In this document: positions 45,997-50,412 of the stretch, piece after piece
How the letters are laid out: each line of letters begins with the position of its first letter
How positions within the stretch are numbered: position 1 is the first letter of the stretch
Origin: Candidatus Spongiisociaceae bacterium
GTDB taxonomy: Bacteria; Actinomycetota; Acidimicrobiia; Spongiisociales; Spongiisociaceae
NCBI GenBank assembly: GCA_965262915.1
Contig: OZ253564.1
Span: 4,128,001 to 4,192,000 of the forward strand
Direction of reading: 5' to 3'
DNA length: 64,000 nt
Notes under the pieces: generated by a model
Databases searched by the model: none
The model's input: the letters and a program-made list of their open reading frames with translations, nothing else
What the model was told of the DNA's origin: nothing
Program-made: the position numbers and the translations under genes

Positions 45997-46175
45997 ACGA
46001 CACGGCGGCCGTGACGAAATGCGCACCGCCCGTTTCGCCCGAGCAGCGCAGCAGCGTCTGGCCGGACAGTCCTTCGACCCCGACACGCTGTTCCAGCACG
46101 ACCCTGTCACGCTGCTCGATGCCTGAAATACACCGCGACGGAGCACTGGTGTTCCAACTCGTGGTGCACCGCCTG

Positions 46176-47386
46176 GGGTGGTGATCCGTTCCCGCAAGCC
46201 CCGCCCGTTGTGTGAGTCCTGTGGCGGCCCGGTGTGGTCCAAGGGTCACAGAACGGTTGTGTTGGTGGATTTACCGGCGTTCGGCGTCCGGTTCGGCTGC
46301 GGTGGCGGAAACGCCGTTGGACATGTCCGAACCCCGACTGTGAGATCAGGTCGTTCATCGAACAAGACCCCACGATTGGTCCCCAACGGGCGTTGTTGAC
46401 CTCCCGAGCGGCCCGGTGGGTGACCATCCAGGTGGGTGGGCGGGGCCGTTCGGTCGACGAGGTCGCCGCGGAGCTTGGTTGTGGGTGGCATACGGTGAAC
46501 AACGAGGTCGGCCGCTGGGGCGAAGCCCTGTTGGAAGCCGACACCGACCGGATAGGCGAGGTCCAAGCTGTGGGCATCGACAAGAAGCGTTGTTCTGGCG
46601 GAAAGGCCGGTGGCGCACCAAAGTCTGGTGCACCTCTGTCGTCGACGTGGGAGGCCACCAGCCGGTTCGACATAGTCGGTGGTAGAACGGCAGAAAGCGC
46701 CGCAGCCTGGTTCCGGGCGCAGCCCACCGAATGGTGTGAGGCTATCCGCTGGGCGGTGTCGGGTCATGTCCGGTTCGTATCGGAAGGCGTATGACAGGGT
46801 GCTGCCCCACGCCCCCGGGGTAGCGGACCCGTTCGGTGTCAGCCGCCTCGCCAACCAGCGTCTCGACGACCTACGACGAAGAGTCCAAAACGAAACCCTG
46901 GGACACAGAGGCCGCAAGGATGACCCGCTGTATCGGATACGCCGCCTCCTCACCGCCGCGCATGAGAGGATCAGCGACCGCGGTCAAACACGGCTGCGTG
47001 GCCTCCTCGATGCCGGTGACCCCCACGGGGAGGTACGCACAGCCTGGCACGCGACCGAAACGGTACGGGGCATCTACGGGATCGAAAGTCCCGCCCTTGC
47101 TCTCCGGTACACCGTCGGGCTCGCGGACGACCTCCAGGACGAATCCTGCCCACCCGAGATCAACAAGCTGGGTCGCACCATCGCCCGCTGGACCCCCCAG
47201 ATCACCAACTGGCACATCTCGAAGGTAACCAACAGACGCCACCGAAGCCCTCAACAACCTGATCAAACGGATCAAACGAGCAGCGTTCGGGTTACCCAAC
47301 TTCGCGAACTACCGAATCCGCGCCCTTCTCTACGCCGGGAAACCCAACTGGGACCTCCTCGCATCGGTCACTCCCCACTGAAATCC
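46176..47386 (+). pseudogene. ISL3-family transposase remnant with multiple frameshifts
   Basis: Close inverted homolog of 48842-50140; its right TIR is split by IS110 and resumes at 50304 (GAAGAGCC). Confidence 0.9.
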
Positions 47387-47400
47387 ACTCATAATTAGAA

Positions 47401-47580
47401 GGTTCCTGGGCTAGGGCGGGTCTGACCCAACTGAAATCTGGCCTTGTGCCTTTTCATCGATCTGTCGGCCCGTTCCCGGCCTGGGGCGTAACCCCCTGAC
47501 CCGGGGCGGATGTGACCTAATAGGAGCCTTCAACTTCTCCACCGTGAGTGGCCTGTCCAACCGCACACGGGTCCGGGGAT
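47401..47580 (+). ncRNA. Putative IS110 bridge RNA
   Basis: Two stem/internal-loop units: ACTGAAATC + TTCATCGAT match the target; ATAGGAGC + TGAGTGG match the element ends. Confidence 0.78.
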
Positions 47581-47616
47581 CGGAAATGATTCTATCCCCT
47601 AGAGGAGAAGAGCATC

Positions 47617-48855
47617 ATGGGAGAAGCAGACCAGATTATCTACGGTGGGGTTGACACCCATCGGGACGTCCACGTAGCAGCGGTGGTGGATGGCGTCGGG
47701 CGGGTACTGGGATCGGAGTCTTTCGCGGTGGAGGAATCCGGTTATCGGCGAATGGTCACCTGGTTCGAGTCGCGGGGACAGTTGGTTCGGGTTGGGGTGG
47801 AAGGAACGGGTAGTTACGGCGCCGGCCTGGCCCGTTACCTGACCGAGATGAACATCGAGGTGGTGGAGGTCAACCGCCCCAACCGCCAACTACGCCGCCA
47901 GAAGGGCGGCAAGACCGACAGCGTCGACGCCGAGGCGGCAGCTCGGGCAGCTGCCTCGGGCGAAGCAACCGCGGTTCCCAAGTCCGGTGTGGGCCCGGTC
48001 GAGTGCATACGGATGCTGTGGGTGGTGCGCCGCTCCGCGGTCAAGGCCCGCACCCAGGCCGCTAACCAGATACATGCGCTGGTCGTAACAGCTCCCGAGC
48101 CGCTAAAACACCAGCTAAAGGGCATGAATCTCAAAGCACGGGTCAAAACCTGTGCCCGGTTCCGACCCGGCACAGACCACACCACCACCGCGTATGCGAA
48201 GCGTGCCCTACAGCATTTGGCCCGCCGGTATCAGGCCCTCGACGTAGAGATCGCCCAACTCGAAGCCGAGATCCGGCGTCTCTGCGCCCAGGCCAACCCG
48301 GCCCTGCTGGCCACAGAAGGTGTCGGTCCTGACACAGCCGCCGCGTTGTTGGTCGCCGCCGGCGACAACCCCAAGCGAATGAAATCGGAACGGTCTTTCG
48401 CGGCGCTGTGCGGCGCCAGCCCCGTCCAGGCGTCATCAGGACGAACCCTTCGGCATCGTCTCAACCGGGGCGGCAACCGCCAAGCCAACAACGCGCTATG
48501 GCGGATCGCTACCACCCGGATGCGCACCGACGCCGCCACCAAAGCCTACGTGGCACGACGCAAGGCCGAGGGCAAGAAGAAAAAGGAGATCATCCGCTGC
48601 CTCAAGCGGCACATCGCCCGAGAAATCTACCGGCTCCTCACCAACCCGCACCCAACCCCGAACTGCGCCCGCCTACGCACCCGACGCCAACAACGCGGCA
48701 TCACCCTCACCCAGACCGCCCAAGCCGTCGGAACCCACCCCAATCGCATCTCAGCACTCGAACACGGCCGAGACCACAACCACCACCTCGCCACCCGATA
48801 CCAGAACTGGCTGCACACCCACCAAACCGGCTCATCGGATTTCAGTGGGGAGTGA
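47617..48855 (+). CDS. IS110-family recombinase with extra C-terminal XRE-like HTH
   Basis: GGVDTH, VGVEGTGSYG, KTDSVDA, GVGP, SSG, LNRGGNRQAN, RCLKRHIAREIY; last codons come from the inserted ISL3 (native end APSSI* at 50270-50287). Confidence 0.95.
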   Translation: MGEADQIIYGGVDTHRDVHVAAVVDGVGRVLGSESFAVEESGYRRMVTWFESRGQLVRVGVEGTGSYGAGLARYLTEMNIEVVEVNRPNRQLRRQKGGKTDSVDAEAAARAAASGEATAVPKSGVGPVECIRMLWVVRRSAVKARTQAANQIHALVVTAPEPLKHQLKGMNLKARVKTCARFRPGTDHTTTAYAKRALQHLARRYQALDVEIAQLEAEIRRLCAQANPALLATEGVGPDTAAALLVAAGDNPKRMKSERSFAALCGASPVQASSGRTLRHRLNRGGNRQANNALWRIATTRMRTDAATKAYVARRKAEGKKKKEIIRCLKRHIAREIYRLLTNPHPTPNCARLRTRRQQRGITLTQTAQAVGTHPNRISALEHGRDHNHHLATRYQNWLHTHQTGSSDFSGE

Positions 48856-50261
48856 CCGATGGGAGTAGGTCCCAGTTGGGTTTCCCCGCGTAGAGAAGGG
48901 CGCGGATTCGGTAGTTCGCGAAGTTGCGGAACCCGAACGCTGCTCGTTTGATCCGTTTGATGAGGTTGTTGAGGGCTTCGGTGGGTCCGTTGGTTACCTT
49001 CGAGATGTGCCAGTTGGTGATCTGGGGGGTCCAGCGGGCGATGGTACGACCCAGCTTGTTGATCTCGGGTGGGCAGGATTCGTGTTGGAGGTCGTCTGCG
49101 AGCTGGAGGGTGTATCGGAGAGCAAGGACCGGACTCTCGATCCCGTAGATGCCTCGTACCGTCTCTTTCGCGTGCCAGGCTGTGCGCACTTCCCCGTAGG
49201 GGTCACCAGCATCGAGGAGACCACGCAGCCGTATTTGACCCCGGTCGCTGATCCTCTCATGCGCAGCGGTTAGGAGCCGCCGTATCCGATACAGCGGGTC
49301 ATCCTTGCGGCCTCGATGCCCGAGGGTTTCGTTTTGGACTCTTCGTCGTACCTCGTCGAGACGCTGGTTGGCGAGGCGGATGACGTGGAACGGGTCCGCT
49401 ACCTGCAGCGCGTGCGGCAGCACCCTGTCATACGCCTTCCGATACGAACCGGACATGTCCAACACCGCCCAGCGGATAGCCTCACACCATTCGGTGGGTT
49501 GTGACCGGAACCAGGCTGCGGCGCTTTCTGCTGTTCTACCAGGGACTATGTCGATCAGCTGGTGGCCGCCAACGTCGACGACAGAGGTGCACCAGACTTT
49601 GGTACGCCAACGGCCCCGACGCCAGAACAACGTCTCGTCCACTCCCACAGCTTCGACGGTCCCGACCCGATCGGTGTCTGCTTCCAGCAGCGCTTCGCCC
49701 CAGCGGCCAACCTCTTTGTTCACCGTATGCCAATCACAACCAAGTTCTGCGGCGACCTCGTCGACCGAACGGCCCCGCCCACCCACCTGGATGGTCACCC
49801 ACCGGGCCGCTCGGGATGTCAACAACGCCCGTTGGGGACCAATCTTGGGGTCTTGTTCGATGAACGATCTGAGCGCACAGTCGGGGTTCGGACATGTCCA
49901 GCGCCGTTTCCGCCACCGCAGCCGCACAGGCCGGCCGAACGCCGGTAAATCCACCAACACAACCGTCCGATAGCCCTTCGACCACACCGACCCGCCACAG
50001 GACTCACACAACGGCCGGGGCTTGCGGGACCGGATCACCACCTCCAACGGTGCCTCCTCGCCCGGGTCGTTGATCCCTACCAGATCAACCTCACCTAGGC
50101 CTACCAACTTCTCGCACATGCGCGTAGGATCAGCTTCCACAGGGGTCCTCCTGCCTCGGATGTCATTACCAACACCCGATTATGGAGGACCCCTCCTCAC
50201 TTCTGGTGGATTCCAACTCCCCCTGGCAGATCCCCTACTCCCCACTCATTTCCGAAGAGCC
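48829..50261 (-). mobile_element. Intact ISL3-family insertion sequence
   Basis: TIR GGCTCATCGGATTTCAGTGGGGAGT / GGCTCTTCGGAAATGAGTGGGGAGT; 8-bp TSD ACCAAACC at 48821-48828 and 50262-50269. Confidence 0.93.
48842..50140 (-). CDS. ISL3-family transposase
   Basis: Zn finger, GVDET, LDMS..Y, ADPFHV, TNGPTEALNNLIKRIKRAAFGFRNF.NYRIR. Confidence 0.96.
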   Translation of the reverse strand: MEADPTRMCEKLVGLGEVDLVGINDPGEEAPLEVVIRSRKPRPLCESCGGSVWSKGYRTVVLVDLPAFGRPVRLRWRKRRWTCPNPDCALRSFIEQDPKIGPQRALLTSRAARWVTIQVGGRGRSVDEVAAELGCDWHTVNKEVGRWGEALLEADTDRVGTVEAVGVDETLFWRRGRWRTKVWCTSVVDVGGHQLIDIVPGRTAESAAAWFRSQPTEWCEAIRWAVLDMSGSYRKAYDRVLPHALQVADPFHVIRLANQRLDEVRRRVQNETLGHRGRKDDPLYRIRRLLTAAHERISDRGQIRLRGLLDAGDPYGEVRTAWHAKETVRGIYGIESPVLALRYTLQLADDLQHESCPPEINKLGRTIARWTPQITNWHISKVTNGPTEALNNLIKRIKRAAFGFRNFANYRIRALLYAGKPNWDLLPSVTPH

Positions 50262-50412
50262 ACCAAACCGCCCCATCATCGATTTGACAACCATAGGAGC
50301 ATCGAAGAGCCCCATAAGCCCCGTCCGTCGTGTGGGGCGTGTGGTGGGTTGGTGTGGTCCAAGGGTGAGCGGACGGTGGTGTTGGTGGATTTGCCGGGTA
50401 CGGTGAGGACGA

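Follow-up and report, generated by a model that had tools for sequence, protein, structure and literature searches.

The window analysed here is a stretch of 64,000 nucleotides from Candidatus Spongiisociaceae bacterium (NCBI GenBank assembly GCA_965262915.1, contig OZ253564.1, positions 4,128,001 to 4,192,000 of the forward strand), and coordinates without a prefix refer to it. Between positions 47000 and 50700 the letters, the list of open reading frames (ORFs) and the Pfam matches together define a nest of three layers, in which the relic of an insertion sequence (IS) of the ISL3 family contains an element of the IS110 family, which in turn contains a second ISL3 copy. The subject of this work is the IS110 element, the left non-coding end of which is predicted to encode a bridge RNA directed against the right inverted repeat of its ISL3 host. 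The layers are arranged as follows.

46166-47386, plus strand: host ISL3 copy 1, a relic that is 5'-truncated and frameshifted, the last part of which (47370-47386) is the inner 17 bp of the right inverted repeat.
47377-47386, plus strand: ACTGAAATC, the left half of the target, followed by the shared C (47386), as defined by the empty right repeats and by a contig of the public run X20.
47386-47616, plus strand: left end of the IS110 element, a non-coding bridge-RNA region of 231 nt that starts (C)ACTCATAAT; the element ends are conserved across 26 copies in the genome.
47617-48855, plus strand: IS110 recombinase ORF, 412 amino acids in this copy, with its native part reaching to 48828.
48821-48828: first copy of the target-site duplication ACCAAACC of the nested ISL3, read from the letters.
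48829-50261, minus strand: nested ISL3 copy 2, intact, 1433 bp, inside the 3' end of the IS110 element, with its transposase ORF at 48842-50140 (432 amino acids).
50262-50269: second copy of the target-site duplication ACCAAACC, read from the letters.
50270-50303, plus strand: right end of the IS110 element, with the native stop, TTGACA at 50284-50289, the left arm of the donor, ATAGGAGCAT, at 50293-50302 and the shared C at 50303.
50304-50311, plus strand: displaced outer 8 bp, GAAGAGCC, of the host ISL3 right repeat, which is the right half of the target.

The family of the outer and inner layers is clear from the intact nested copy. Its transposase matches DDE_Tnp_ISL3 (PF01610; 1.1e-57), Zn_ribbon_ISL3 and HTH_Tnp_ISL3, and in our census of the genome it is an element of 1433 bp with a 445-codon open frame. 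The terminal inverted repeats lie at 48829-48853 and 50237-50261, the left repeat being matched exactly at 50237-50261. A DDE_Tnp_ISL3 transposase, terminal inverted repeats of about 25 bp and an 8 bp target-site duplication are all features of ISL3, for which a duplication of this length is typical. The host relic aligns with positions 209-1425 of the intact copy at 90.5% identity with ten gaps (blastn) and has lost the first 208 bp, left repeat included; no left repeat belonging to it is found in the window at up to three mismatches. Its transposase is left in two overlapping ORF pieces, on which DDE_Tnp_ISL3 and HTH_Tnp_ISL3 fall. The preliminary description of this 2.9 kb interval was silent on the nested copy, which makes up half of it. 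The nested insertion exchanges the last five native residues of the IS110 recombinase for eight others and pushes the IS110 right end 1.44 kb away, and this end (50270-50303) is identical to the right ends of uninterrupted copies. ISL3 and IS110 parasitise each other, an intact ISL3 having landed in the IS110 element here.

The IS110 ORF encodes a recombinase with matches to DEDD_Tnp_IS110 (PF01548; 1.2e-23) and Transposase_20 (PF02371; 1.7e-19) and to a C-terminal XRE-type helix-turn-helix (HTH) domain (HTH_31/HTH_3). The catalytic D, E, D and D residues and the serine of the S-G motif align with the IS621 chain 8wt6_A, where mapping onto the residue numbering of the IS621 paper assumes an inferred offset of two residues. 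In uninterrupted copies the recombinase ORF continues into the right end and its native stop lies about 20 nt from the end of the element; the resulting length is 409 amino acids in the ORF of sister copy B1 and, from sequence, also in an uninterrupted copy of the subfamily described here. The XRE-type HTH is located at 48667-48774 (recombinase residues 351-386), beyond the part that aligns with the IS621 chain. It was detected in five of six recombinases scanned, namely in this copy and in four of five sisters (loci L013, L017, L026 and L051), while F1 remained below the threshold, and the region is shared by at least 139 database relatives.

The ends of the element, (C)ACTCATA... and ...ATAGGAGCAT(C), form no inverted repeats, and a single C is the sole duplication. 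A long non-coding left end upstream of the gene, two stem and internal-loop modules and a short right end correspond to the layout of the IS110 group, and the DEDD domain, the Tnp serine, the ends, the two modules, the target guides, the donor guides and the hexamers of a junction promoter are features of this group that are present here. Of the core dinucleotide that in this group is identical in donor and target (CT in IS621), only the second letter is shared here. According to the available parts of PMC11208160 and PMC11187229, the IS1111 group is defined by sub-terminal inverted repeats and a long non-coding region downstream of the gene. Membership of that group was ruled out, the non-coding region lying upstream of the gene and the right end about 20 nt past the stop.

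The motifs from which a bridge RNA had been proposed in the preliminary description were all found at their positions when read back from the letters: ACTGAAATC occurs at 47377-47385 and again at 47430-47438, TTCATCGAT at 47453-47461, ATAGGAGC at 47520-47527 and at 50293-50300, and TGAGTGG at 47545-47551. They fall into two modules, in which LTG and RTG denote the left and right target guides.

47414-47475, plus strand: target-binding module, with stem arms at 47414-47426 and 47464-47475, LTG at 47430-47439, a mini-hairpin at 47440-47450 and RTG at 47454-47462.
47503-47564, plus strand: donor-binding module, with stem arms at 47503-47516 and 47555-47564, the 5' guide ATAGGAGCCTT at 47520-47530 and the 3' guide GTGAGTGG at 47544-47551.

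The 5' guide of the donor module has the same letters as the right end of the element, and its 3' guide is the complement of the left end. This holds in all subfamilies, where the right end has the letters of the loop sequence ATAGGAGC and the left end those of the reverse complement of GTGAGTG[G/T]. The ISL3 left repeat also holds CCACTCAT (50242-50249), the same eight letters that stand at the IS110 left junction and are complemented by the 3' donor guide; this coincidence may be due to chance.

Next, we aligned the left end with its homologues in this genome and in relatives (22 distinct sequences) to examine the proposed structure. RNAalifold recovered the first stem, the mini-hairpin and the two unpaired guide stretches, and several pairs of the outer target stem show compensatory changes (columns 10/75 are GU in seven, AU in seven and CG in five sequences). 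When its two arms were folded separately, the second stem proved to be conserved, and to vary by compensatory changes, in 16 of 17 rows; the 17th row (A5) was mis-anchored and is left uncounted. Both stems of the preliminary description are in agreement with these data. The only match to Rfam, a weak one to the radC family, lies inside the ORF; at E = 0.3 and 21.5 bits, with the gathering score at 40, it was taken as chance.

Joining of the two ends had been proposed to create a promoter with a spacing of 17 or 18 nt. Both hexamers are present, TTGACA at 50284-50289 and CATAAT at 47390-47395, and since the ends share one C the spacing is exactly 17 nt. At the sequence level, hexamers and spacing are kept in other subfamilies. 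No sigma-70-like promoter was found in the integrated context (47300-47700). In the proposed mechanism, a bridge RNA would be made from the circle junction and would guide recombination.

The guides can be compared with the insertion sites of many related copies. The genome is a single contig of 5.06 Mb and contains nine near-identical copies (A), eight copies at about 81% identity (B) and further subfamilies C-I, the ends being common to all (loci are cited below by our own handles). It had been considered that copies with the same loops might sit in unrelated targets; 16 of the 17 A and B copies are located in the ISL3 right repeat, at one position and in one orientation. Their left flank is the inner part of the right repeat, and their right flank is GATGAGCC in 11 copies and GAAGAGCC in five. 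Read after the constant GATC, the RTG has GATGA as its reverse complement, and this matches four of five letters in the copy described here and five of five at the 11 copies flanked by GATGAGCC. A recombinase that is 100% identical is found at the same ISL3 site in a separate, named Acidimicrobiia metagenome-assembled genome.

Copies with other loop letters occupy other targets, and these match those letters. A scan for the conserved stem motifs yielded 35 target-loop modules in the genome, which include nine guide types with known flanks. In each type the left flank, read as far as the shared C, is repeated in the last nine letters of the 5' side of the loop, and the right flank is matched, as its reverse complement, by the five letters that adjoin the constant GATC on the 3' side. 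We scored the pairing of the 9 nt 5' guide and the 5 nt 3' guide, counting U-G pairs and taking the better of two registers, which raises the background. For cognate guides and sites (14 sites), 12-14 of 14 positions are paired (mean 13.4), while among 110 non-cognate pairs the mean is 7.2 and the highest value is 10. This agreement of guides with flanks is far beyond chance, with loop positions changing along with the flanks in nine guide types, and the rule also holds for relatives in other genomes of the family. A scan of genome contigs with the recombinase protein found two loci only, the second of which (L062) is without a target loop, and a scan of metagenome contigs with a 24 nt target-loop string found one contig (L069), carrying an H-type element in an H-type site and not in ISL3.

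The polarity of the guides, with the 5' side equal to the top strand and the 3' side complementary to it, their lengths and the junction promoter correspond to what is described in the available parts of PMC11208160 and PMC11208158. In the former, the 5' side of the bridge RNA pairs with the bottom strand over 8-9 nt and the 3' side with the top strand over 4-7 nt.

The junctions were defined from empty sites. The right repeats of ISL3, where empty, have the sequence ACTGAAATC-C-GA[T/A]GAGCC, with two Cs, and 16 copies show ACTGAAATCCGA[T/A]GAGC(C); the X20 contig passes from 47386 directly into GATGAGCC. The shared C is the one at 47386 and 50303, and the triplet ATC (50301-50303) forms part of the right end of the IS110 element, rather than being a triplet of the target that was duplicated. 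Removal of the element rejoins an ISL3 terminal repeat, as had been described, and this is specifically the right inverted repeat, 25 bp long and split by the insertion into 17 and 8 bp; the letters shared by the two junctions are reduced from ATC to a single C. Empty sites are available for four guide types (A, 16; E, four; F, three; G, nine). In each of these types an occupied site is distinguished from an empty one by the element and exactly one C, which places the crossover at the invariant C. As a candidate target, a repeat variant with a single C and an ATC core was rejected because the empty E, F and G sites also show one shared C; only one of 26 empty right repeats has one C. This sole single-C repeat, ACTGAAATCGATGAGCC (G000:C1 near 306093, minus strand), belongs to an ISL3 copy with an open transposase frame and could be a one-base deletion or the footprint of an imprecise excision.

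At the left junction the letter before the invariant C is that of the target itself (C, A or T), and at the right junction it is always the T of the donor. This agrees with expectation if the top strands are cut 3' of the core, as described for IS621 in the available parts of PMC11208158, where the first core position is also less conserved and can be varied. The letter of the right donor guide (RDG) opposite the first core position equals the target letter for C and A and fails for T (types D, D2 and H), which fits only partly the post-exchange 'handshake' pairing that the same parts of PMC11208158 describe. Two tandem tips of the right end, CATAGGAGCATCTT, stand beside a right-end fragment at G000:C1 near 1369588-1369602 (minus strand) and are possibly the remnant of an abortive or half-site recombination.

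Occupancy of the ISL3 repeats follows the guide. Right repeats with the exact ACTGAAATC-C left half are occupied in 15 of 31 cases and the single right repeat with a one-letter variant is also occupied, while none of seven right repeats with the variant ACTGAAACG (ACG, 3 nt) and none of 29 left repeats (ACTCATTTCC) are. The corresponding Fisher p values of 0.03 for the ACG variant and 7e-6 for the left repeats overstate the contrast, as these copies are kin. An open frame of at least 420 codons that reaches the right repeat is present in three of 16 occupied ISL3 copies versus 14 of 16 empty copies that match the guide; the contrast in broken frames (13 of 16 versus two of 16) gives p = 0.0002 (Fisher), which for kin copies is again an overstatement of the contrast. 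Six of the 16 occupied ISL3 hosts have no recognisable left repeat. Insertion may immobilise ISL3, which then decays; alternatively, older copies may simply have had more time for both events. With the repeat split in two and 13 of 16 occupied copies frame-broken, the earlier wording that the element parasitises ISL3 ends is fair.

We propose that the element is an IS110-group insertion sequence, about 1.48 kb long when uninterrupted, with a DEDD/Tnp serine recombinase and a two-loop bridge RNA in its 231 nt left end, guided to the ISL3 right repeat, and we place the probability of this explanation as a whole at roughly 0.88. The protein family, the ends, the conserved structure, the guide-flank match across subfamilies and the site selectivity are observed. 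By analogy with IS621, the element would excise as a circle, and joining of the right to the left end would place the -35 and -10 hexamers 17 nt apart in a promoter that would then drive transcription of both the bridge RNA and the recombinase. The donor loop would pair with the joined ends and the target loop with both halves of the right repeat of a single ISL3 family, and RNA-dependent strand exchange would occur just after the invariant C. The predicted outcome is an orientation-specific insertion that splits the ISL3 repeat into 17 and 8 bp and should deprive that ISL3 copy of its mobility. In this genome the clade to which the element belongs has split into at least nine guide types, and several of these are directed at the ends of further insertion sequences.

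Several observations weigh against this proposal. The copies within the genome are kin, and counts of them are not counts of independent events. One of the 17 copies with these guides (B4) is located at a non-ISL3 site, and the copy in the window, being interrupted by ISL3, may itself no longer move. As regards the RNA, RNAalifold alone missed the donor loop and mis-paired the donor guides, no Rfam bridge-RNA family matched, and the fold of the single sequence is unexceptional (z = -1.54, with 14 of 200 shuffles folding as well); its minimum free energy structure, in which the donor guide is paired with the beginning of the left end, was given no weight. Of four public runs, all consisting of contigs, X18, X19 and X20 cover parts of the stretch, and in them no transcription, RNA ends or circle junction are seen; X18 covers 47388-47549, but its library is only guessed to be RNA. 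As regards the core, the donor has TC and the targets have CC, AC or TC, such that only the second letter, C, is common. Finally, the 5' target guide is read in two registers that are one nucleotide apart. Types C, D, E, F and I put the core C opposite the 12th loop letter (C), and types A/B, G and H put it opposite the 13th (U, giving a U-G pair). In one sister pair, type G here and a relative in genome G001, homologous targets that differ at two letters are read in different registers.

The alternative that survives best is that an ISL3::IS110 composite was spread by transposition of ISL3, or by homologous recombination or conversion between ISL3 copies, and not by repeated site-specific insertion of IS110. 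All 16 occupied sites belong to one repeat family and kinship could inflate their number; moreover, the left ends of A and B look mosaic and conversion between copies does occur. Such a composite is difficult to reconcile with the presence at the same position of two IS110 subfamilies that are only about 81% identical, in host copies the flanks of which represent at least five sequence types, several carrying both A and B. The condition of the hosts (broken frames in 13 of 16, left repeats unrecognisable in six, and only 8 bp of repeat left beyond the insert) also argues against ISL3 as the vehicle. The same guide-flank logic in other subfamilies at unrelated sites, together with occupation of the same site in another genome, makes this explanation quite improbable.

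A second possibility is that the recombinase reads the ISL3 repeat through protein-DNA contacts, perhaps via its C-terminal HTH, and that the target-like strings are by-products, for example captured target halves. The XRE-type HTH of this clade is indeed not reached by the solved IS621 chain, and the DNA of the 5' guide is a copy of the left half-site. In the relative L046 (G021:C1:1560383-1563549, minus strand), and likewise in L035 and L052, the initial 51 nt of the left end, which extend through the 5' target guide, occur in up to seven tandem copies, and it looks as if in L046 the guide-encoding DNA was itself used as an insertion or recombination site. The 3' guide, on the other hand, is the reverse complement of the right flank and not a copy of it, and it has a fixed place in a conserved structure. 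The nine guide types differ mainly in their loop letters, with the recombinase domains unchanged, and polarity and lengths equal those of the bridge RNAs proven experimentally in the available parts of PMC11208160. Recognition by the protein is slightly less probable still than spread as a composite. Coincidence between loops and flanks in a GC-rich, repeat-dense region, with which the unexceptional fold energy of the single sequence would be compatible, can be dismissed in view of the conserved stems and of the covariation over nine guide types and 14 sites, where the cognate minimum of 12 exceeds the non-cognate maximum of 10 of 14.

Guided insertion also offers a reading of the exceptional copy B4 (G000:C1 about 3663642-3665110, minus strand; L010), which carries A/B loops between unrelated, non-ISL3 flanks and resembles B up to a few nucleotides from either end. 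Of 14 positions at its site, seven pair with the guide that B4 itself carries and 12 with the guide of subfamily C, the latter above every non-cognate control. Because the site fits the C guide and the subfamilies share their donor ends, B4 is most simply read as a case of guidance in trans, and the letters suggest that it was inserted under the direction of a C-type RNA. Bridge RNA works in trans according to the available parts of PMC11208160.

The other guide types are also associated with mobile elements. Type F flanks both ends of a second ISL3-family insertion sequence, which encodes a 408-residue DDE_Tnp_ISL3 protein (L064), and the D and E sites lie a few tens of nucleotides inside this same element. 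One of its copies (G000:C1:541942-546194; L027, L028, L064) has an inverted F-type IS110 at both repeats and contains, in addition, an empty E-type site. Type H is found at the left end of an insertion sequence with rve and HTH_38 domains (L068), type C adjoins an IS5/IS1182-like transposase and an IS110 fragment (L065, L066), and no transposase lies closer than 2.4 kb to the short dispersed repeat in which type G is located (L063). The clade largely lives in the ends of other mobile elements.

Elements of type H (L069, L036, L040, L047, L053, L054 and L059; G000:C1 near 642094) have a 5' guide that is near-identical to that of the ISL3-directed type and a different 3' guide. Their site reads CGATCA.TGAAATT-C-CCCA.. 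at the left end of the rve-type element, which suggests, at the level of the letters, that one half-site was kept upon retargeting to ISL3.

It is conceivable, although we hold this view tentatively and consider it somewhat doubtful, that in one Acidimicrobiia chromosome the IS110 clade has radiated into at least nine guide types specialised on the ends of insertion sequences, as a hyperparasite that immobilises its IS hosts. The targets of such a radiation would be one ISL3 family at its right repeat, the second ISL3-family element at both repeats and at two sub-terminal sites, the rve-type element at its left end, and the short dispersed repeat. Retargeting might proceed half-site by half-site, only the 3' guide differing between the ISL3-directed type and type H, and the 5' guide would be free to slip by one nucleotide, with U-G or C-G opposite the invariant core C. 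Because the donor ends are kept in all subfamilies, the bridge RNA of one could move the copies of another.

Remnants of insertion sequences are piled up at this locus: just past the displaced outer piece of the host repeat, a further short ISL3 fragment (50316-50403) shares 83% identity with the intact copy over positions 239-327 of the latter.

The genome offers a natural experiment in bridge-RNA programming, with sisters in one chromosome that have identical donor ends and sites predicted by their loops, with selectivity against near-cognate sites and with one likely case of guidance in trans. It also indicates an ecological role of IS110 elements, which parasitise, and probably silence, other insertion sequences in this uncultured lineage of actinobacteria rich in IS. 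For the engineering of bridge recombinases, the clade provides a recombinase with an extra HTH, a C-type core, a tolerated mismatch at the first core position and a shift in guide register.

IS621 of E. coli serves as the reference among IS110 elements with a bridge RNA, and its natural targets are repetitive extragenic palindromic (REP) sequences. The element described here resembles IS621 in its DEDD/RuvC and Tnp recombinase, with the catalytic D, E, D, D and S residues aligned, in a left-end bridge RNA with target and donor loops, the 3' side of which is complementary to the top strand over about 5-7 nt, in a promoter split between the right and left ends and in an invariant second core position (available parts of PMC11208160 and PMC11208158). 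It differs in its recombinase of about 409 residues with the added C-terminal XRE-type HTH, and in the invariant core letter, which is C here and T in IS621 (core CT in the same parts of these papers). The donor has T as its first core letter, usually in contrast to the target, which has C or A. Two registers are in use for the 5' target guide, something that the IS621 model, as set out in the available parts of these papers, does not describe. Moreover, no Rfam model matched here, and the host is an uncultured Acidimicrobiia lineage.

Insertion of IS110-family elements into terminal inverted repeats of other transposable elements is familiar from two further cases, known to us from paper titles alone. 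IS1383 reportedly inserts in the inverted repeats of IS1384, and IS4321 and IS5075 are said to insert in the terminal repeats of Tn21-family transposons and to carry sub-terminal repeats, an observation attributed to Partridge and Hall. Unlike in these cases, the target here is restricted to the right repeat of ISL3, the RNA is located upstream of the gene, as in the IS110 group, and several sister guide types hit different IS ends in one genome.

Natural reprogramming between sister elements is shared with the seekRNA elements ISEc11/ISXne4 and ISEc21, where, in the available parts of PMC11187229, related elements differ in their guide stretches and their targets differ correspondingly. A search of the available literature returned no paper on an IS110 element aimed at an ISL3 repeat, and the supplementary target tables of PMC11208160 and PMC11187229 could list such cases. 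The mechanism and the targeting of inverted repeats by the IS110 family are already on record; added here are ISL3 as the target and an unusually complete natural covariation series, in which, unlike in ISEc11/ISXne4 and ISEc21, at least nine guide types coexist in one chromosome and the targets are largely other insertion sequences.

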